A stretch of 17,866 bases of DNA from Promethearchaeota archaeon. GTDB lineage: Archaea > Asgardarchaeota > Odinarchaeia > Odinarchaeales > JBHLKK01. The stretch spans positions 1-17,866 of the forward strand of contig JBHLPL010000034.1 of the NCBI GenBank assembly GCA_048939465.1. Direction: 5' to 3'. Positions 1 to 17,632 of the stretch are shown piece after piece. The notes under the pieces are model-generated. The model saw only the letters and a program-made list of their open reading frames with translations. It searched no databases and was not told the DNA's origin. The stretch's first letter is position 1, and every line of letters starts with the position of its first letter. A program made the position numbers and the translations under genes.

Positions 1-58
1 CTAGAGTCGACCTCAGTTCACGGTCCAAGAGCATCTTACTAGCTGGTGGCCTTCTAAA

Positions 59-66
59 TTATATAA
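59..66 (+). promoter_or_regulatory. Putative archaeal TATA box for the acl operon
   Basis: TTATATAA at 59-66, 42 nt upstream of the GTG at 109; SD-like GGGGAGGAG at 94-102. Confidence 0.6.
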
Positions 67-108: not shown

Positions 109-1392
109 GTGGCGAGAAAAGCGATTAGGGAGTATGACGCAAAGAGATTGCTGGCACAATACCTGCCAGAATATGCAAAAGGTAAGTTCTCTTACCCGGG
201 AAAGACTGTCTCTGTTGATGGTAAAACAAACATGGAAAACCTCGTCTCCAAAAATCCTTGGTTAAGAACCGAGAAGCTAGTGGTAAAAGTAGATCAATTG
301 GTAGGAAAAAGGCTGAAGAATAACTTAGTTTTACTTAACACTAATCTCGATGAGGCAACTAGATTCATTCGAGAGAAAATGAACAGCTCAGTGACTGTAG
401 GTAATGTAGAAGGGGTCCTTACTCATTTCTTAATTGAACCGTTCGTCCTACATGAAAGGGAGTATTTTGCGGCCATAAGATCAGTACGCGAGGGAGATAT
501 AATAGACTTCTCAACCGAGGGCGGAATAGACATTGAAGAAAAATGGGAAAGCGTCGTTTCTATTAAGATTCCAACACTCGAATCTGTTGAGAATGTCGAT
601 ATTTCAGGGAAGCTTCCGTCAGAACTATCAGACGAAGAGAGGGGGTTGTTTGGCGATTTTCTGAAAGCACTTTACAGGCTTTACAGCGATCTTGGTTTTG
701 TATATCTAGAGATAAATCCCCTTGTCGTAAGCGATAGTACAATCATTCCGCTCGATCTCAAAGCAAGACTGGACGATGCCGCAATTTTTGAAATGGGTGC
801 AAAATGGGGGGATATAGAGTTTCCGGCTCCTTTCGGAAGGGCTCAGACTATCGAGGAGAAGCATGTCAATGATCTGGATGAAACAACTGGAGCTTCACTG
901 AAACTCACAATTCTTAACCCTAAAGGACGCATATGGCTGTTGGTTGCAGGCGGGGGGGCAAGCGTTGTATATACGGATACTGTTACAGATTTTGGCTTCT
1001 CAAATGAACTGGCAAACTATGGAGAATATAGTGGAAACCCTGATGAAGAACACACATACCTCTACGCCAAAACAATCATCGATCTGATGACGAGAGAGAA
1101 AGATCCAGAAGGAAGAGACAAAATACTTCTAATTGGTGGGGGAATTGCAAACTTCACTGACGTCGCTCAGACTTTTAAGGGAATCATAAGAGCCTTGAAA
1201 GAGGCCAAAAAGAAACTGCAGGCTACGGGAGTTCAGATTTATGTTCGACGCGGTGGTCCCAACTATGAGGAAGGGCTGAGACTCATGAGGGAGCTGGGGA
1301 AAGGATTAAACGTCCCCATCCAGGTCTACGGACCTGAAACTCATATGACCAAAATAGTCTCCCTAGCACTCAAAGAACAGAATCGTGGGTGA
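109..1392 (+). CDS. aclB: ATP citrate lyase beta subunit (ATP-grasp plus citrate-binding domain)
   Basis: N-terminal MARKAIREYDAKRLL and motifs LEINP, DLKARLDDAA, VAGGGASVVY, ANYGEYSG, GGGIANFT, VRRGGPNY are typical of ACL-A/AclB. GTG start with SD. Confidence 0.93.
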   Translation: MARKAIREYDAKRLLAQYLPEYAKGKFSYPGKTVSVDGKTNMENLVSKNPWLRTEKLVVKVDQLVGKRLKNNLVLLNTNLDEATRFIREKMNSSVTVGNVEGVLTHFLIEPFVLHEREYFAAIRSVREGDIIDFSTEGGIDIEEKWESVVSIKIPTLESVENVDISGKLPSELSDEERGLFGDFLKALYRLYSDLGFVYLEINPLVVSDSTIIPLDLKARLDDAAIFEMGAKWGDIEFPAPFGRAQTIEEKHVNDLDETTGASLKLTILNPKGRIWLLVAGGGASVVYTDTVTDFGFSNELANYGEYSGNPDEEHTYLYAKTIIDLMTREKDPEGRDKILLIGGGIANFTDVAQTFKGIIRALKEAKKKLQATGVQIYVRRGGPNYEEGLRLMRELGKGLNVPIQVYGPETHMTKIVSLALKEQNRG

Positions 1393-1398
1393 AGGGCA

Positions 1399-3255
1399 AT
1401 GAAGAAGACAGACTACACTCTGTTTGATAAGAAAACCCAAGCATTTATCTACAGCCTCCAAGCTAATGCAATTCAACGCATGCTGGATTTTGACTATATC
1501 TGCAAAAGAGAGACGCCCAGTGTTGCTGCAGTTGTCGATCCTTTCAGACCGGGGCTGCAGAAGGTATTTTGGGGAAGCAAAGAGATCCTGATACCAGTCT
1601 ATGCTACCATAAAAGAGGCCGTAAGGAACCATCCAGACGTTGATGTAATGATCAATTTTGCGTCTTTTAGGTCAGCATATCCTACAACCTATGAGGCACT
1701 AAACGAGAATACTATCAGAGTCATTGTAATCATTGCCGAGGGCATTCCTGAGGCAAAAACAAAGAAGCTGATCGCCATAGCAAAGAAGAACAATAAGATC
1801 ATTATCGGACCATCAACAGTTGGAGGGTTGGTTGCCGGAGGATTCAGGATCGGCAACACCGCAGGAGCTATTGGAAATATCGTTGCTGCTAAATTATATA
1901 GGCCGGGTTCAGTAGGCGTTGTTTCAAAGTCGGGTGGGCTTCTAAACGAGATTTTCAACATGGTTGCATTAAACTCAAATGGGGTTTTTGAAGGAGTGGC
2001 AATAGGTGGAGACAGATATCCCGGCTCCACACTCCTCGACCATATAACAAGATATGAAGCAAACCCTAAAATAAAAATGATAGTTGCTCTCGGCGAGGTC
2101 GGGGGTACAGACGAATACCAAATAGTGGAGGCGCTGAAGCATGGAAAGATTACCAAACAACTTGTCATGTGGGTAATCGGGACGGCCGCAACAGTTTTTC
2201 CAACTGGAGTTCAATTTGGACATGCGGGTGCAATGGCTGAAAGCAGTCTAGAAAATGCTGACGTAAAAAACCGGGCTTTAAGAGAAGCAGGCGCAATCGT
2301 TCCAGATTCATTTGACGACTTCGGAGAGAAAATCCATCAGGTGTACGAAGGGCTGAAGGCAAAAGGTGAGATTCCTGAAATAGAAGAATTTGATGTTCCT
2401 CAGATTCCGATGCCTTATCAAGTAGCCTTATCGAAAGGCATCATAAGAAAACCTGCGAACTTCGTTACCACAATATCGGATGATCGAGGAGAAGAACCCA
2501 CGTACGCAGGAATACCGATAAGCGAGATCATTGAAGAGGACTATTCCATCGGAGATATAATAGGCTTGCTTTGGTTTAGAAAGAAGTTGCCGAAGTTTGC
2601 AACAGGATTCATCGAGATGGTACTGAAAATTGTTGCAGATCATGGACCAGCTGTATCAGGGGCACATAACGCCATTGTTGCTGCTAGAGCCGGCAAAGAC
2701 CTTATCTCTGCACTCTGCAGCGGTCTATTAACAATCGGTCCGCGATTTGGCGGAGCGATCGATGGCGCTGCACGTTATTTCAGTCAAGCGAAGGATTCGG
2801 GTATGAAACCTGCAGACTTCGTAGATGATATGAAGGCTAAAGGAATTTACATTCCAGGAATCGGTCACAGGATAAAAAGCGTGGAGAATCCTGACAGGCG
2901 TGTGGAATTGCTTAAAGATTTTGCGCGCAGAAATTTCCCGAAAACTGACTATCTAGATTATGCTCTTGAAGTCGAGAAGATAACGACCCAAAAAAGAAAC
3001 ACATTAATCCTAAATGTTGACGGGTGCGTGGGCATTCTATTCTTGGATATGCTAAAGGGGACGACTATGTTCACAGATGATGAGATAAGAGAAATGATTG
3101 AGATTGGATACCTCAACACCATGTTTGTGTTAGGAAGAAGCATTGGGATTATTGGGCATATTCTCGATCAAAAACGTCTCAAGGCTGGCTTGTACAGACA
3201 TCCGTGGGATGACATACTCTATTATGTGGAGAGAGGAGAGACTGGTGAGAAGTAA
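1399..3255 (+). CDS. aclA: ATP citrate lyase alpha subunit (CoA-binding/ligase domain with phospho-His, plus C-terminal citryl-CoA lyase module)
   Basis: NFASFRSA, IIGPSTVGG, GDRYPGS, phospho-His motif QFGHAGA, DHGPAVSGAHN, IGPRFGGA, PGIGHRIKS, LNVDG, LYRHPWDDI. Starts 6 nt after aclB. Confidence 0.93.
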   Translation: MKKTDYTLFDKKTQAFIYSLQANAIQRMLDFDYICKRETPSVAAVVDPFRPGLQKVFWGSKEILIPVYATIKEAVRNHPDVDVMINFASFRSAYPTTYEALNENTIRVIVIIAEGIPEAKTKKLIAIAKKNNKIIIGPSTVGGLVAGGFRIGNTAGAIGNIVAAKLYRPGSVGVVSKSGGLLNEIFNMVALNSNGVFEGVAIGGDRYPGSTLLDHITRYEANPKIKMIVALGEVGGTDEYQIVEALKHGKITKQLVMWVIGTAATVFPTGVQFGHAGAMAESSLENADVKNRALREAGAIVPDSFDDFGEKIHQVYEGLKAKGEIPEIEEFDVPQIPMPYQVALSKGIIRKPANFVTTISDDRGEEPTYAGIPISEIIEEDYSIGDIIGLLWFRKKLPKFATGFIEMVLKIVADHGPAVSGAHNAIVAARAGKDLISALCSGLLTIGPRFGGAIDGAARYFSQAKDSGMKPADFVDDMKAKGIYIPGIGHRIKSVENPDRRVELLKDFARRNFPKTDYLDYALEVEKITTQKRNTLILNVDGCVGILFLDMLKGTTMFTDDEIREMIEIGYLNTMFVLGRSIGIIGHILDQKRLKAGLYRHPWDDILYYVERGETGEK

Positions 3256-3549
3256 ACTACTCCTCCCTTGCAGAAGGAGCTTATGACTATGCTTGACCGC
3301 AATTCCCTTGGGGGCTTTGGCTTCATCACACGTCAAATCAGGGGGCAGTTTACAGCGCCCCAGCCAAGTAATCCGCATTTAGCGTCGGGCTATATGATTT
3401 GTCCCATCCATCCCCCACAGGTCATTAACCGTTTCCACATCGGAGAGAGGTGTGCCTTTAGACCTACTGGAATACTCATCCCAGAAGTATTTAAGGACCG
3501 CTCGATCCCTCTCCGTCCTTTCGGACGGAGTCTCCTTGAGGTGGTTTAG
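3252..3549 (-). mobile_element. Non-autonomous IS200/IS605-like element (PATE/MITE type), no transposase or tnpB ORF
   Basis: Two related 20-nt hairpins in the same orientation on the minus strand: CTCCGTCC-GAAA-GGACGGAG (3530-3511) and CTCCTTCT-GCAA-GGGAGGAG (3279-3260), 15/20 identical. The right end reads AAGCTCC...GGAG-TAGT-TTAC, like tnpB-element right ends. The left hairpin starts 19 nt after TCAT. Deleting 3252-3549 gives GAG AAA TGA overlapping the icd ATG. Confidence 0.68.
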
Positions 3550-4788
3550 ATGAATAAGAAATTGCAGCACCTAGAATCTCCGACTGAGGGAGAATGTATC
3601 AGAGTCATTGATAGCAAACTGCAGGTACCGGCCAATCCCATCATTTCGTTTATTGAGGGAGATGGCGTAGGTCCGGATATCACCAAGGCTATGCTGCCGG
3701 TCGTGAATGCTGCGGTCGAAAAAGCATATTACGGACGCAGAGAAATATCTTGGTACGAGATATTTGCAGGCCAGAAAGCCAAAGCCCTGTACGGGGAGTA
3801 TCTTCCTGAAGAAACTCTCGATGCAATTCGGAAATATGTTATAGCAATAAAGGGACCCCTAACAACGCCAGTCGGAGGAGGATATAGGAGCCTTAACGTA
3901 ACTATCAGACAGAAACTCGATTTATACGCGTGTGTGAGACCAGTAAGAGGCATAAGGGGAGTACCTGCACCAATTAAGAGACCAGAGCTAGTAGACATGG
4001 TAGTTTTTCGGGAAAATATTGAAGATGTCTACGCAGGTATTGAATGGGCATCAAATACACCTGAAAGTCGCAAGTTTATCGACTTCCTTAGGAATGAGAT
4101 GGGGGTGTCAATTCCCTTAGATTCAGGAATTGGAGTCAAGCCAATCAGTAAGACCAGAACCTACAATATTGTACGGAAATCAATCAATTATGCAATCGAA
4201 AATAACAGGAAAAGCGTTACGATAATGCACAAAGGCAATATTATGAAGTTCACCGAGGGAGCCTTTAGAGAGTGGGGATACGAAGTTGCAAATAACGAGT
4301 TTGGAGATTATATAGTAACAGAGGAGCAACTGAGGAGCGGTGAATTGCCTGAGGGCAAAGTTGTTATTAAAGATAGGATTGCAGATGCGATGTTTCAGCA
4401 GGTACTACTCAGGCCTAAAGAATACGATGTCATAGTTACGTCAAATCTAAACGGTGATTATATATCGGACGCGTTGGCTGCCCAAGTCGGTGGATTGGGA
4501 ATGGCACCTGGAGGAAACATCGGCGACTACCTTGCTGTTTTTGAGGCTACACATGGGACTGCACCAAAATACGCAGGACTAGACAAAGTGAATCCAGGAT
4601 CACTGATTCTCTCGGCAGTTATGATGCTCCGTTATATCGGATGGAATGAGGCAGGGGATCTAATCGAGAAAGCTCTTGAGAAAACCATACTGCAAAAGAG
4701 GGTAACCTACGATCTTGAACGGCAAATGGAGAATGCAACGCTTCTGAAGACATCAGAATTCGCCAAAGCTGTCGTTGAAAATCTATAA
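3550..4788 (+). CDS. icd: Isocitrate dehydrogenase, NADP-dependent, dimeric prokaryotic type
   Basis: [70 protein letters not shown] and VTYDLER carry the Lys/Tyr/Tyr/Arg residues associated with NADP specificity. SD GAGGTG at 3538-3543. Confidence 0.95.
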
Positions 4789-11152: not shown

Positions 11153-14100
11153 ATGGCTAGGGCAATTGATAGATGGGAATTGATGACAACTTTCTTTGAA
11201 GAAAAAGGATTAGTAAGACAGCATCTTGATTCGTATAACTCCTTCATTAAAGAAGGACTCCAGCAGATTGTAGAAGAAGTTGGTAGAATTGAGCCAGATA
11301 TTGAAGGATTTTGTGTCGAATTTGGCAAGATTAGAGTAGAGGAGCCAAATGTTACCGAGGCCGATGGTTCAGTTAAGAAAGTAAGCCCAAGTGAGGCGCG
11401 TATCCGCAATCTGACATACTCGGCACCGATATACTTGGAAATGACTCCGGTACTCCAAGATTCAGAGACGGGTATTGAAGAACGTGGAGAAACAATCGAC
11501 ATCTACATCGGCAGAATACCTATTATGCTTAAATCGGAAAGATGCGGACTCGCTCACTTAAGTCCGGAGAATCTTGTAAAGGTTAACGAAGACCCGAGGG
11601 ATCCGGGCGGCTATTTCATAGTCAACGGATCAGAACGAGTACTGGTTACTCAAGAGGATCTGGCGCCCAACAGAATCTTAACTGAAGAAGCAGGAAGCAG
11701 TAGTTCCGCAACTCACGTAGCAAAGGTATTCTCGACAGCTCGCGGCTTCAGGGCTCCTGTAACACTGGAAAGAACCAAAGACAATGAATTAAGGGTTTCC
11801 TTCCCGTCGATACCGGGAAAAATCCCCTTGATAATTCTTGTGCGGGCCTTAGGACTTATCACAGACAAGGAGGTCATCGAGACTTTCTCTGAAGATTTTG
11901 AGATTCGGCGTGAGCTCATCCCTACCCTTGAGGCAGCGGCACCCATATACGTCCCTAAGGATCGAGAGGAAACAAGGAGAAATGCCCTAGACTATATCGG
12001 CAGAAGGGTTGCCATCGGTCAAACCATCGAATATCGGTTAAGACGCGCAGAACAGGTTTTAGATCGCTATCTTCTTCCCCACATAGGTATGAGGCAAGAA
12101 GATCGAATTAGGAAGGCATATTATCTTACGCAAATGGCTCAAAGGCTTATTGAACTAATTTTGGGAAAAAGAGCCAAGGACGATAAAGATCATTATTCAA
12201 ATAAAAGACTGAAGCTCGCAGGTGAGCTTCTAACAAGTCTGTTTCGGGTTGCATTTTTGAATCTTGTTAGAGACGTCAAATATCAGCTTGAACGAACTGC
12301 TGTTAGAGGTCGCAAGCCCAACATTCGTACGGCTGTACGAGCGGATGTGATAACAGAACGACTTAAACATGCATTAGCTACAGGGAACTGGGTCGGTGGA
12401 AAAGCAGGCGTAAGTCAGCTACTTGACAGAACAAACTATATATCAACGTTGAGCCATCTGAGAAGAATTGTTTCTCCTCTTAGCAGAAGTCAGCCTCATT
12501 TCGAGGCACGTGACCTTCATCCCACGCACTGGGGCCGGATATGTGTTGCTCCTTCAACCTTGGTAACGATGGCAGATAAGGTGACTCAAACTCCAATATC
12601 TGATTTAGAACAGAACTACTCGGAAAAGACGGTTGCAACGGTGAATCTGGCAGACTTCCGGATAGTTCCGTCAACACTACACGATTATCAGAAATTCTCA
12701 CCAATTAAGCTAAATAAGAGAGTTTACAGGATAACAACAATTAGCGGAAGAACCATTGAGGCAACAGCAGATCATCCATTCTTCACACTTAGAGGATGGG
12801 TTTCTGGAAAAGATCTTAATGTTAATGATAAAGTCTTGGTATTCCCAGGCATCGAGCCGATCGAGATTGAACCCATATTGGAGTCTCAGGGTGAAATCCT
12901 ATCGGAAAAGGAATTCCTTGAAGGTGAGTGGATAACCAAGCTAACAAGCTCGGAGAGAAAGCGATTAGCAGGATACGCTGAAGAATTAAAAGAAAAGGGG
13001 CTTCTGCCGCTCAAAAATACCAACCCCAAGTTGCCCATTGTCGCAAGATTGTTCGGATATATCATTACAGACGGCTCTGTTGGCAAGACAGTCGAGTTCT
13101 ACTGTGGCTGTAGAGAGGATGTTAAAGACATCCAAACAGATCTCCTAGAGCTGGGCTTCAAACCCACAAGCATTAGCACAAAAATCGGGACCTTTCCGGT
13201 TGATGGAGAAGAATTGACTTATACTACAGAAAGAACCACAAAGGGAGGTTCTTTCCTATCCCTCATGCTGGCCTTGGGCTGTCCGAGAGGGAAAAGAGTG
13301 TCACAGCCGTCGGTTTTTCCAAAATGGGTTCCTAATTCAAGCCTTCTAGTTCAGCGAGAGTTCCTTGCGGGCTATCTTGGCGGTGATGGTTCAGCACCTC
13401 GATTCTACAGAAGATCTGAAGAGGATAGAAAAGATAGCTATAAGATCAAGCTGGATAGAATCGCAGGTCACAAGGAGAAAGAGTTCGCATCAACCTTGAG
13501 AGAATTCTTTGAAAAGATGCGGAATTCGTTTAGAAATTTCAACATTAAAACACTTGGGATCGGATCTAAATCCTTAGACGACGAGAAGATTCAGGTTGGT
13601 CTTCAGTTTTCCCAAGAGCATTCTAACATTGTGAAAATCGCTAAGTTGATCGGATTCAGGTACTGTAAAGAAAAGCAAAGCAAAGCGGCGTTGGTTCAAG
13701 AGTATTTGAACTACAAAGAATGGGAGATTTCAATTAGGTCGAAATATGTCCAAGAAGCAATCACGCTATTCAAGAATGGGGTGACAAAACGAGAGATTGC
13801 TAAGCATCTCTCACTAAAGTTCAACAGAAACATCACCCACAGAGCTATTGATGGACTTTTGCTGCGAATTGATGAGCGTAAGAAGCTTGTAATGCCTAAA
13901 TCTTCCATGAATATCAACGACTTCCTCCTAGAAACTTGTGCAGACTTCGATAATGGATTCTTATATTTGCCTATCGATAGAATCGAGGAATCGCGCCTGG
14001 AAGATGTAAGGGATTTCACCACCGTTTCAAAGAATCATAACTTCATTGCAAACGGATTCTTAACACACAATTGTCCCAATGAGACCCCTGAGGGGCCCAA

Positions 14101-17100
14101 CTGTGTTGTGCCCAACACCAGGGTTACCATCTCCGGAGGTAGTACGTATCAAATCGGAGACTTAGAAAAGGATGGAAAGTGGCGGCGCATTAGGTTGATG
14201 TCTTCAACTTGGAATGTGCCAAATAATCATCAAACAGACGCTATCTATCCAACAGTGGCGAGATTCATAAAAAACAAGGCTAACGGACGCCCATTTAAGC
14301 TCTATAACATCAAGACAGATACTGGTCGCACAATATCAGCGACAGCAGACCACCCATTCTATACCGACCAGGGTCGACTGGAAGCTAAGAGACTTACACA
14401 TGGAACGAAAGCTGCCGTATTGCCTGCAGCGCTTCAGCGACCTGACTGGGGGTCGGAGGTCGGTGGTAATGATATTATCATAAGCGAAAAAGGAATTATT
14501 GAGGCTTGCCCACCGCACTCCAAAGTCCAGCTTCACTGTAACTTCCTGAAGAAGCTGGGATTGATCCCCCTCAGGAGAAGCGATCCACGTTATAGAATTC
14601 TGCTTCGTCTTTTGGCCTTCCTTTATGGTGATGGGCACTTATCTTTTAGGATCCGTGAGGGCAGGTCTGGTAAGCCCAAATCGGATGTTTCAGTTCATTT
14701 TGTCGGTCAAGTAGAAGACCTGAAAGATATTCAGACTGATATTGCCATGCTTGGCTTCCGAAGTTCCAAGATATACACTTCAAAGGCCGAATCTGTCCTT
14801 CCAGACAGAATAATTAAAGGCAAGACTTCCAAGATTGTATGTTACCAAAAACCCTTCTGGGTCCTTATGAAGGGGCTTGGTGCTCCTGTTGGAGATAAGC
14901 AAAAGCAAGATTTCTCCGTCCCCGAATGGCTTTTTAATGCATCCGGAGCGGAGATTAGAGAGTTTTTGGCTGCGTTTTTTGGATGTGAAATGCTTAAGCC
15001 GCTAGTTGACAAGAGAACAGGAAAGGTCTTTGTCCCTCCTTCCATCAAGATGTCAAAGGAAATCTCCATGATTGAGTCACTCCGAGAATTCTTTATGGAC
15101 ATAAAGAGACTGGCCGAACGTTTTGATATCCAGTTTCCTGAAAAAGTTATCACTCCTAAAGAAAAATTCGTACGTAAGGATGGGACAGTTACGCAAAAAC
15201 TTCAATTGAACTTCTCGGGCTCAGTTGAAAACCTAGCCAAGCTATGGGGAAAGATTGGCTATACCTATAACAGAGAACGGGAATGTCTCGCTCAACGTGC
15301 TTATGGCTATCTACATAGGCATTTGATGGCTCGTTCTAAACGACAAGAAGCTGCAAGGTATGTTATGGGAAGAAGACGGGTGCTAGATGGAACTCCAACT
15401 GAAAAAGCGAGAATCATTATGAAGGAACTTAAAGATCTAGGACTACTTCAATTTGTTCGTCTTCACGATATCGTCAACTGGATAAAGACTCGTATAGAGC
15501 CCTCCTCAGCTCGTGTATCAGAGATAGATTCTCCATCATTTGATGAATGGGTAGCTCAAGCTGCGATGAATCTAGAAGGTGATGCTGGTCTAATCTGGGA
15601 GACTGTAGAAACTGTTAATATTAAGATTACCGAACCCTCTCAGATTGTTGAAGATGTGACCATGGCGGACAGAAATCATAACTTCTTTGTCAACGGTTTT
15701 CTAACCGGAAACTGTGGTCTCGTCAAGAATCTTGCCCTGATGGCCTACATCTCCGTCGGGACGGATGAGGGGGTTGTCGAAAATGTCCTGTTAAATCTCG
15801 GGGTTTATCCTGCAGAGGAGGTTATTAAAGACAAAACGAAGAGAGGAGCTCAAGTATTTCTGAACGGGAGGCTTGTCGGCGTTCATCCTAAGGCAAAGGA
15901 ACTCGTCACAAAATTGAGAGCGATACGTAGAAAGGGGGAAATTGACGACGAGGTCAACGCAGCATATGACGCTGAAACCAACGAAGTTCAGATCAACTGT
16001 GACTCGGGAAGAGCCAGAAGACCTCTGATAATCGTAGAGGATGGCGTGCCTAAAATCAAGCCAGAGCAAATAGAGCAGTTGAGAAATAGGGAGATAGTGT
16101 TCAGTGACCTAGTGGCAAAAGGAATCGTGGAATATCTAGATTCAGAAGAGGAAGAGAACTCGTTTATTGCGCTTGACCCCAAGGATTTGACCCCTGAGCA
16201 CACACATCTCGAAATAGCGCCTTCCGCGATACTTGGCATAACAGCATCAACGACACCCTTCCCTGAATATAACCAGTCTCCCCGTAATGTTTACCAAGCA
16301 GGAATGAGCAAGCAAGCCCTCGGAATCTATGCCACGAACTATCGACACAGAGTCGATACAAGAAGCCATCTCCTTCATTATCCTCAAAGACCGATTGTAG
16401 AGACTGAGGCAATGGACGCTGTAGGTTTTGCCAGCAGACCAGCTGGCCAGAATCTGATTGTGGCTGTCCTCAGCTTCCAAGGATACAACCTGGAAGATGC
16501 TCTAGTTATTAACAAGGCATCAATAGAACGAGGCGTTGGGAGAGGAACCTTTTTCAGATCATACGAGGCAGAAGAAAGGAAGTACCCTGGGGGTCAGGAG
16601 GATAGATTCGAAATTCCGGAAAAAAGTGTTCGTGGGTATCGTATAGCCGAAGCCTATCGCCACCTGTCTGAGGATGGTATCATTGAGCCCGAAATGGAAG
16701 TAACAGGTGGTGATGTGTTGATAGGACGATCAAGCCCTCCGAGGTTTCTTGAAGAGTATTCCGAATTTGAAGCCATCTCGCCGATAAGGCGCGAGACCTC
16801 GATAAACATGAGACATGGCGAAAGGGGTGTGGTCGATACTGTTATACTTTCTGAAACGATGGACGGGAGTAAGTTAATCAAGATTAAAGTTAGGGATCAA
16901 CGGATACCTGAACTCGGAGACAAGTTTGCGTCCAGACATGGCCAAAAAGGAGTTATTGGTTTAATAGTTCCACAGGAAGATATGCCTTTTACAGGAGAGG
17001 GGATAGTACCAGATCTCATAGTAAACCCGCACGCAATACCGTCCCGTATGACGGTTGGACAGATAATGGAGGGGTTGGCAGGAAAGGTTGGTGCCCTCAG

Positions 17101-17632
17101 AGGAGATGTAGAAGGAATTAACGGCAACGCGTTTAGCGGGGAAAAAGGAGAAGTCCTTTTTAAGATGCTCAAAGAATTGGGCTTTAAGCCCACTGGACGC
17201 GAAGTAATGTACGATGGAATGACTGGCAGAAAATACATCGTAGACGTTTTTATGGCTGTCGTATACTACCAGAAACTGCACCACATGGTTGCAGATAAGA
17301 TGCACGCCCGTGCTCGCGGTCCTGTACAGATATTGACCAGACAACCGACGGAGGGTAGAGCAAGAGAAGGTGGACTACGCTTCGGTGAAATGGAACGGGA
17401 CTGTCTAATAGGGCACGGTGCAGCATTGGTCTTGAAAGAACGGTTACTTGATGAATCGGATAAATACAATATGCTGATCTGCGAAAACTGTGGCACCATT
17501 GGTGTCTATGACAGGAATAAAGACAGATACTATTGTCCTATTTGTGGAGATAAGGGGAAGGTCTCACAGGTTTCAGTTTCTTATGCCTTCAAACTTTTGC
17601 TCCAAGAACTCATGTCTTTCGATTTCCCCTGA
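11153..17632 (+). CDS. rpoB: DNA-directed RNA polymerase subunit B (unsplit) precursor with two inteins; about 1112 aa after splicing; last few codons probably non-native
   Basis: [44 protein letters not shown]|[10 protein letters not shown]|[48 protein letters not shown], zinc site CENC...[17 protein letters not shown]. Confidence 0.97.
12542..14071 (+). mobile_element. Intein 1 in RpoB (510 aa, residues 464-973) with LAGLIDADG homing endonuclease
   Basis: Begins CVAPST; block B ATADHPF; LAGLIDADG-like [11 protein letters not shown] and [12 protein letters not shown]; ends [12 protein letters not shown], +1 residue Cys. Confidence 0.93.
14102..15712 (+). mobile_element. Intein 2 in RpoB (537 aa, residues 984-1520) with LAGLIDADG homing endonuclease
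   Basis: Begins CVVPNT; block B ATADHPF; [11 protein letters not shown] and [10 protein letters not shown]; ends [12 protein letters not shown], +1 residue Cys. Confidence 0.92.

Follow-up and report, generated by a model that had tools for sequence, protein, structure and literature searches.

Introduction

Gene-less IS200/IS605 elements that carry omega-RNAs, known as PATEs (palindrome-associated transposable elements), have already been published: they were first named in Haloquadratum (PMC3119063), and they often encode omega-RNAs that are obliged to use TnpB in trans (Meers et al., PMC10055086). Herein, we analyse what is a clear case of that kind in a 17,866-nt stretch of DNA (the window, to whose positions all coordinates below refer) from the 1.96-Mb assembly of an Asgard archaeon (G000), drawing on the assemblies of two congeners (G001 and G002) and on other Asgard genomes. 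Very probably, positions 3252-3549 of the window, which separate the ATP-citrate lyase gene aclA from the isocitrate dehydrogenase gene icd, are a gene-less, non-autonomous IS200/IS605 element of the PATE type that arose by internal deletions from a 1243-bp insertion sequence (IS) carrying tnpB only. The top strand of the element is the minus strand of the window.

The closest described relatives in kind are the PATE-like elements of the ISGst group in Geobacillus stearothermophilus (Meers et al. 2023, PMC10055086). Like the element at aclA-icd, they have no protein gene, share their subterminal hairpins with tnpB-bearing ISs of the same genome, and lie next to a conserved target motif whose changes are matched by those of an internal DNA guide; in both cases an omega-RNA appears to be retained for which TnpB is needed in trans. 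The element studied here differs in its Asgard archaeal host, its target (TTCAT), its terminal motif (TTTAC), an archaeal TATA-like box taken over from the tnpB promoter of its parent, and an extra, highly conserved 5' block from within tnpB.

The ends compare best with those of IS608 from Helicobacter pylori, which is moved by a Y1 HUH transposase, TnpA. In IS608, the left cut lies 3' of a tetranucleotide and 19 nt 5' of the hairpin foot, and the four nucleotides just 5' of each foot serve as guides, in which position 1 pairs with cleavage position 2, position 2 with position 1, and position 4 with position 4, while cleavage position 3 is unpaired; no target is duplicated, and donor joints are precise (PMC3201880, He et al. 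2011). The element at aclA-icd follows the same scheme, although its right cut falls 8 nt after the hairpin rather than 10, its target is TCAT rather than TTAC, its right-end guide has a conserved T.T mismatch, and it has no genes. For the interior, the nearest model is the omega-RNA of ISDra2 TnpB, whose cryo-EM structure (PMC10097598) shows a scaffold that joins the tnpB 3' end to the right end and contains a pseudoknot between positions -2 to -6 and -102 to -106. The candidate scaffold here has the same composition, and its last six nucleotides before the guide are predicted to pair with a loop about 100 nt upstream, but it has no sequence similarity to the ISDra2 omega-RNA and no Rfam match, its structure comes from covariation only, and the RNA would start at its own promoter rather than from a tnpB mRNA.

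A dispersed repeat family with exact ends

In the archaeon's own assembly, 3252-3549 was found to belong to a family with at least 15 full-length members, which share 73-86% identity and lie in unrelated flanks, besides fragments. When the copies were aligned with 40 nt of flank, similarity ended exactly after TAGTTTAC (3252) on one side and at T(T)CAT^CTAAACC on the other (the caret marks the element boundary throughout), and the right boundary was sharp in 15 of the archaeon's own copies plus 11 from relatives. Most copies are flanked by TTCAT or TCAT, while TCGT, TTAT and ATAT occur as variants, and no direct repeats surround the insertions, so that the dispersal, the preceding TCAT and the lack of target duplication foreseen by the original prediction, which had proposed an IS200/IS605-type element at these positions, are all borne out. 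Contigs of four metagenome runs show about ten-fold summed depth within 3252-3549 and have loose ends at 3251/3252 and 3554.

Profile searches also recovered shorter derivatives, namely elements of ~110 nt (C84 and C41) and single-hairpin units of ~47 nt in which the left 19 nt are followed by one hairpin and TAGTTTAC (Table 1). The latter may have arisen by deletion between the left and right hairpins, which resemble each other, or may represent a minimal REP-like mobile unit. G000 further contains a second sub-family of left ends, TTTAT^CTTCTTCTCCGCAAGAAGA-hairpin, with AAGA as the guide (e.g., C137:8599, C68:13251, C2:25974 and C141:6268), whose partner right ends finish in TAGTTCAC.

Empty and occupied alleles of the aclA-icd junction

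The congener G001 carries the element at the same aclA-icd site. G002 is without it, reading ...GGGAGTGATGAGTG^ATGAATAAG with the junction ...GATGAGTG^ATGAAT, in which the TGA of aclA overlaps the ATG of icd by one base. A second empty allele comes from metagenome runs X7 and X9, in which, on a contig from a further relative (identity about 86-89%), 29 diverged letters of aclA tail connect 3222 with 3550, ending ...GACAAGTA^ATGAAT (...AAGTA^ATGAAT). These two natural empty sites therefore confirm the predicted boundaries. Deleting 3252-3549 from the window yields GGT GAG AAA TGA AT, exactly as had been stated, and an empty allele was correctly anticipated in relatives; its form was not, as the natural alleles overlap stop and start by 1 nt (TGATG or TAATG) rather than by the 4-nt ATGA of the G000 reconstruction. 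The insertion thus lies 3' of TTCAT, the complement of the icd start ATGAA, and splits a junction whose stop and start overlap in relatives; the last base (G) of the final AAG codon of aclA and its TAA stop are both derived from the element.

The same observations bear on the reading of 3252-3549 as a native, conserved regulatory region or non-coding RNA gene of the aclA-icd locus. Such a region would account for the structure of the stretch and for its presence at the same place in a congener. However, the empty sites, exact in two relatives, together with at least 15 dispersed copies in unrelated flanks, already refute this reading, and homology to the ends of tnpB ISs also speaks against it. 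So does an Rfam scan of 3000-3800 at E up to 10, which returned three weak chance matches only and no omega-RNA or IS605 family. We consider a native region very improbable.

The history of the site allows two courses. Flank identity is 84% between G000 and G001 and about 88% between G002 and either of them; by this rough clock, the two occupied genomes are the most distant pair, which implies either an insertion in a common ancestor that was later lost precisely, or two separate insertions into this site. A tree built from 26 copies of three genomes did not discriminate between these courses: even copies with clearly orthologous flanks failed to pair, and the orthology of the G000 and G001 aclA-icd copies is therefore based on position only. 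Elsewhere, copies with matching flanks are found in both congeners (G001:C10:26543 with G002:C115:72, and G001:C5:13991 with G002:C57:1876), and those insertions predate the species split.

Guides and targets

The motifs listed in the original prediction (TCAT, 15 nt, GAGA, both hairpins, TAAG and a terminus ending at 3252) stand where it had put them on the minus strand, and the IS608 guide rule that it applied agrees with the published account. GAGA matches TCAT at 3/3 guide positions at exactly the 19-nt spacing. Across three sub-families, the guide/target pairs are GAGA/TCAT, AAGA/TTAT (the TTTAT-flanked sub-family of G000) and GAAG/TCAC (cousins in other Asgard genomes), the last two of which are two independent guide/target covariations. 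The TCGT flank variant is allowed because cleavage position 3 is free.

At the right end, the reported 2/3 match of TAAG to TTAC was upheld, but the decay that it had been taken to signify was not: the T.T mismatch is found as the consensus across all copies, the tnpB-bearing parent included, and is thus not decay. Otherwise, the checks put forward with the original prediction all gave positive results, and its interpretation stands. In Asgard cousins, this guide position is C or A, and changes in the right-end motif have been found to be better tolerated than changes in the target (Meers et al., PMC10055086). The two ends carry subterminal hairpins on one strand, rather than terminal inverted repeats, and these are conserved with compensatory changes.

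Origin from a tnpB-bearing insertion sequence

The complete parent IS, found in G001 (C109), reads TTTCAT^left end, tnpB (a 387-codon open frame) and right end, and has the same ends and the same TTCAT target as the mini-element. Specifically, four collinear segments (Table 1) show what the mini-element retains: the left end, including the TATA-like box, two short pieces from inside tnpB, and the last ~142 nt, made of the tnpB tail and the right end. The most conserved block of the element (element 86-135) has its source inside the tnpB frame, at parent 710-777, about 470-530 nt before the right end.

Partial relatives of the parent are present in G000 itself, in line with the tnpB link that the original prediction had sought. 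Contig C55 ends with the 3' part of tnpB (...NSDLNGARNIAQRY...) followed by the right end, and the right half of the element is homologous to the final ~150 nt of C55, with ...TATAAG-hairpin-TAGTTTAC among them. On contig C70, TTCAT^left end and a TATA-like box are followed, about 23 nt on, by the ATG and 5' part of tnpB, matching the parent, in which ATTAAATA stands ~23 nt upstream of the tnpB ATG; C70 also shows an 8-nt repeat, TAAAGGCA, at the position of the first deletion junction. In an alignment with TnpB/Cas12f proteins of solved structure, the parent TnpB has all three acidic residues of RuvC (D/E/D), and intact TnpB copies are present in G001 and G002.

A candidate guide RNA

About 230 nt of the element lie between the left hairpin and TAAG. 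For 33 aligned copies from four genomes, a hand-set structure of nine helices had 93.6% of cells paired, compared with 38-46% with slid partners, and compensatory changes in 20 of its 43 pairs; none of 500 shuffles attained any of five structure measures, the covariation score among them. The many G-U pairs identify the structured strand as the minus strand of the window. A cruder search for stems, based on column-pair statistics, yielded G-U noise for the most part, and the hand-set structure took its place.

A pseudoknot with ISDra2-like spacing is also predicted from this analysis. Of the 16 elements that end in GTTTAC, 13 have GUAAAC at about -102 (at a distance of 102-97 nt from the right end), where it complements the terminal GUUUAC. 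The pairs concerned are nearly invariant, with one compensatory case only, so that the pseudoknot stays a prediction; a search for covariation across sub-families found the loop complement GTGAAC absent from all 18 elements that end in TTCAC.

The TATA-like box, of which cousins of the G024 type have a stronger form (TTTTAAATATAT), would start an RNA near 3455-3465. The conserved block at 3415-3464, nearly invariant across distant Asgard lineages, is probably the 5' part of that RNA, and may serve as a 5' domain or pair with the left terminus. Such a candidate omega-RNA would be transcribed from the element and could be used by a TnpB.

These parts suggest the following cycle. A Y1 (HUH) TnpA supplied in trans would bind the two subterminal hairpins, and the 4-nt guides 5' of them, GAGA and TAAG, would choose the cuts TCAT^ and TTAC^. 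Excision would be precise and leave no duplication, with TTCAT^TTCTCACC as the predicted donor joint. The retained interior combines the promoter region of the parent with the tnpB tail and the right end, and from its minus strand an omega-RNA of ~210 nt would probably be made; the guide of this RNA would be the flanking aclA 3' end, which would match the donor joint TTCAT+TTCTCACCAG.... Directed by this RNA, a TnpB from another locus could then cut the emptied site (TTCAT plus flank), thereby restoring the element, as in the model of Meers et al.

The opposite strand was considered as a source of protein. A 93-codon plus-strand frame, 3268-3549, is open here, and long open frames on that strand are found in many copies, as a small protein gene between aclA and icd would require. 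Yet the frame differs between copies because indels shift the reading frame, the C-terminal halves are unrelated, and the third codon position is not the most variable (0.18, 0.145 and 0.153 for positions 1, 2 and 3). With neither a conserved frame nor a third-position excess, this candidate was rejected, and we give a small protein gene practically no credence.

Constraint and distribution

The G000 and G001 copies at the aclA-icd site are 85.9% identical, compared with 64% at the adjoining third codon positions of icd. A second pair of orthologous copies shows a smaller excess, and a third pair none; for the orthologous pair G001 C5 and G002 C57, identity is 76.9%, compared with 74% at icd third positions between these two genomes. 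Such figures are compatible with purifying selection, with gene conversion or with later independent insertion.

An exact 19-mer of the conserved block occurs in metagenome-assembled genomes (MAGs) labelled Borrarchaeum, Sifarchaeum, Hodarchaeota and Promethearchaeota. Nearly all of these matches represent elements that measure about 300-340 bp and share the architecture described here, one being the aclA-icd copy of G001, while two single matches in bacterial MAGs had no match to the element profile. The deletion architecture and the core block are thus kept across several Asgard lineages.

One explanation that draws on these data is an old insertion, now immobile, that is kept for a function, either as an intercistronic spacer (providing a stop, a Shine-Dalgarno sequence and structure) or as a stand-alone guide-RNA gene. 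This concerns the present function of the element, not its origin, and overlaps in part with the explanation that we prefer. It is in keeping with the slow divergence of the G000 and G001 aclA-icd copies, with the lack of near-identical copies in the genome, with a TnpA that is almost absent and non-canonical, and with the conservation of architecture and core block among Asgard lineages. Against this, the G001 C5 and G002 C57 copies diverge almost as fast as third positions, the site is empty in two relatives that have a working junction, and low divergence would also follow from gene conversion between copies or from two insertions that took place independently at a later time. We therefore regard retention for function as unlikely.

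Gene starts and host effect

On the plus strand, the left end reads TTGAGGTGGTTTAG^ATG, with GAGGT beginning at -12 from the icd ATG. Genome-wide, Shine-Dalgarno-type 5-mers before long open reading frames (ORFs) peak at -12/-11, and they accompany 24% of starts, compared with 7% in a control interval. The element supplies the aclA stop and, 12 nt before the icd ATG, GAGGTG, and neither of its strands contains a run of more than three Ts; judging by this layout, the operon is plausibly read through the element, and icd translated.

The arrangement recurs in G000, where about 12 left ends adjoin an ATG or GTG that opens a long ORF, and about a third of copies sit exactly on start codons. Proteins opening at a flank ATG match Pfam profiles from profile position 1-3, the profile beginning at residues 2-15 in nine of the ten tested, so that these codons are true gene starts. 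For comparison, only 13% of all ATGAA sites open at least 140 codons. In the congeners the placement is weaker, as the left ends of their copies fall on gene starts in only 2-3 of 14 cases. Among AAGA-type left ends, none adjoins a start codon save one copy with a TTCAT flank (C24).

The simplest reading of this pattern is survivorship: harmless insertions may explain it without adaptation. TTCAT complements ATGAA, a common way for genes to start, and insertions at such places would survive because a usable Shine-Dalgarno sequence comes with the element. It is also possible that the left end is adapted for start-codon insertion. At two G000 copies, C25:476 and C38:1583, the gene ATG stands 4 nt past the left boundary (..CAT+TCGT^ and ..TCAT+ATAT^, respectively), as though 4 extra bases separated target from left end.

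Mobility

The host genome has a single Y1 tnpA, followed by tnpB, on contig C105 (Pfam E = 7.5e-37), besides several other tnpB genes; the catalytic Y and a Q of the protein (C105:1150-1557) align with those of ISDra2 TnpA. A 47-nt single-hairpin mini-element lies immediately upstream of this tnpA-tnpB IS. For movement of the aclA-icd element by TnpA, the presence/absence polymorphism at its site is the sole evidence, and it is indirect.

Several observations weigh against the element as a currently mobilised PATE. First, the sole TnpA of G000 has D-Y-F-H in place of the metal-binding D-H-V-H (HUH) of ISDra2, and searches of G001, G002, G024 and G003 with the C105 protein recovered no TnpA; the first three of these, relatives that carry the element, are only 77-82% complete. 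Second, the tnpA-bearing IS on C105 has a different right terminus, TAGTTCAC, and its left end could not be placed by the 19-nt rule; trans-mobilisation by this IS is thus our assumption. Third, no pair of G000 copies is more than 86% identical, and hence nothing indicates recent transposition and current mobility is doubtful.

Layout of the locus

The ORF upstream of the element has the succinyl-CoA-ligase-alpha plus citryl-CoA-lyase architecture of AclA, and the one downstream is an NADP-dependent isocitrate dehydrogenase that scores over the curated cut-off, with the profile beginning at residue 7. A 2159-codon ORF at 11153-17632 (+) occupies the last third of the window.

Table 1. Features of the element and its surroundings, with the segments shared with the parent IS and the shortest derivatives in G000
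Feature	Position	Strand	Basis or remark
aclB-like ORF	109-1392		
aclA (ATP-citrate lyase, alpha type)	1399-3255	+	ORF and domain architecture
Right-end flank, predicted guide of ~16-20 nt if the omega-RNA is made	3232-3251	-	Antisense to aclA 3' end; from the TnpB model (PMC10055086)
Right terminus TAGTTTAC	3252-3259	-	TTTAC, transposon-encoded cleavage motif; GUUUAC, 3' arm of predicted pseudoknot
Candidate omega-RNA scaffold (tnpB tail plus right end), element 157-298	3252-3393	-	Homology to last ~150 nt of parent IS
Right-end hairpin CTCCTTCT-GCAA-GGGAGGAG	3260-3279	-	Two G-U pairs, formed on minus strand only; compensatory changes in helix 9
Right-end DNA guide TAAG	3280-3283	-	Pairs with TTAC at 2/3 positions; T.T mismatch is family consensus
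GUAAAC loop	3348-3353	-	102-97 nt from right end; 6/6 complement of terminal GUUUAC (predicted pseudoknot)
Variable linker rich in indels, element 136-156	3394-3414	-	Copy alignment
Most conserved block, element 86-135	3415-3464	-	Collinear with two short stretches within tnpB ORF of parent
TATA-like box CTTAAATA	3488-3495	-	Inherited from tnpB promoter of parent; putative promoter
Left-end hairpin CTCCGTCC-GAAA-GGACGGAG	3511-3530	-	Perfect 8-bp stem, GAAA loop
19-nt left terminus CTAAACCACCTCAAGGAGA	3531-3549	-	DNA guide GAGA at 3534-3531; 15 nt between TCAT and GAGA
GAGGTG, putative Shine-Dalgarno sequence from element	3538-3543	+	Begins 12 nt before icd ATG
Target and transposon-adjacent motif TTCAT	3550-3554	-	Reverse complement of ATGAA, which comprises the icd start codon and the next two bases; TCAT is 3553-3550
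icd (NADP isocitrate dehydrogenase)	3550-4788	+	Profile match
Element 9-62	parent IS 9-63		G001:C109
Element 91-102	parent IS 710-721		G001:C109
Element 112-132	parent IS 757-777		G001:C109
Element 157-298	parent IS 1094-1243		G001:C109
~47-nt single-hairpin mini-elements, G000 (approximate)	C105:997-1043, C69:17421-17467, C138:78807-78763, C48:18923-18969, C23:14169-14125		

Implications

For annotation, our results mean that the gap between aclA and icd is a mobile-element insertion and not a regulatory region, and that many similar structured, ORF-free gaps in this genome belong to the same family. We regard the case as slightly above routine for its clean empty-site proof, its natural guide/target covariation and its arrangement of start codon and Shine-Dalgarno sequence. 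Specifically, the three guide/target pairs provide natural covariation for the DNA-guide/target code of TnpA, and the family offers a resource for work on TnpB, comprising a structured omega-RNA candidate, a transposon-adjacent motif (TTCAT) and intact Asgard TnpB partners, in a lineage relevant to TnpB evolution.

More speculatively, this PATE lineage might be an ancient, self-promoted guide-RNA cassette of several Asgard lineages, nearly without TnpA, that occupies a start-codon niche, with copies under purifying selection and partly domesticated as an intercistronic or guide-RNA module, a proposal that we put forward tentatively and think unlikely. If it were true, the complementarity of TTCAT to ATGAA, together with a left-end Shine-Dalgarno sequence at the host optimum, would allow insertions before essential genes to be tolerated. 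Apart from that proposal, the left-end Shine-Dalgarno sequence suggests how insertions at the start codons of central-metabolism genes can be tolerated.

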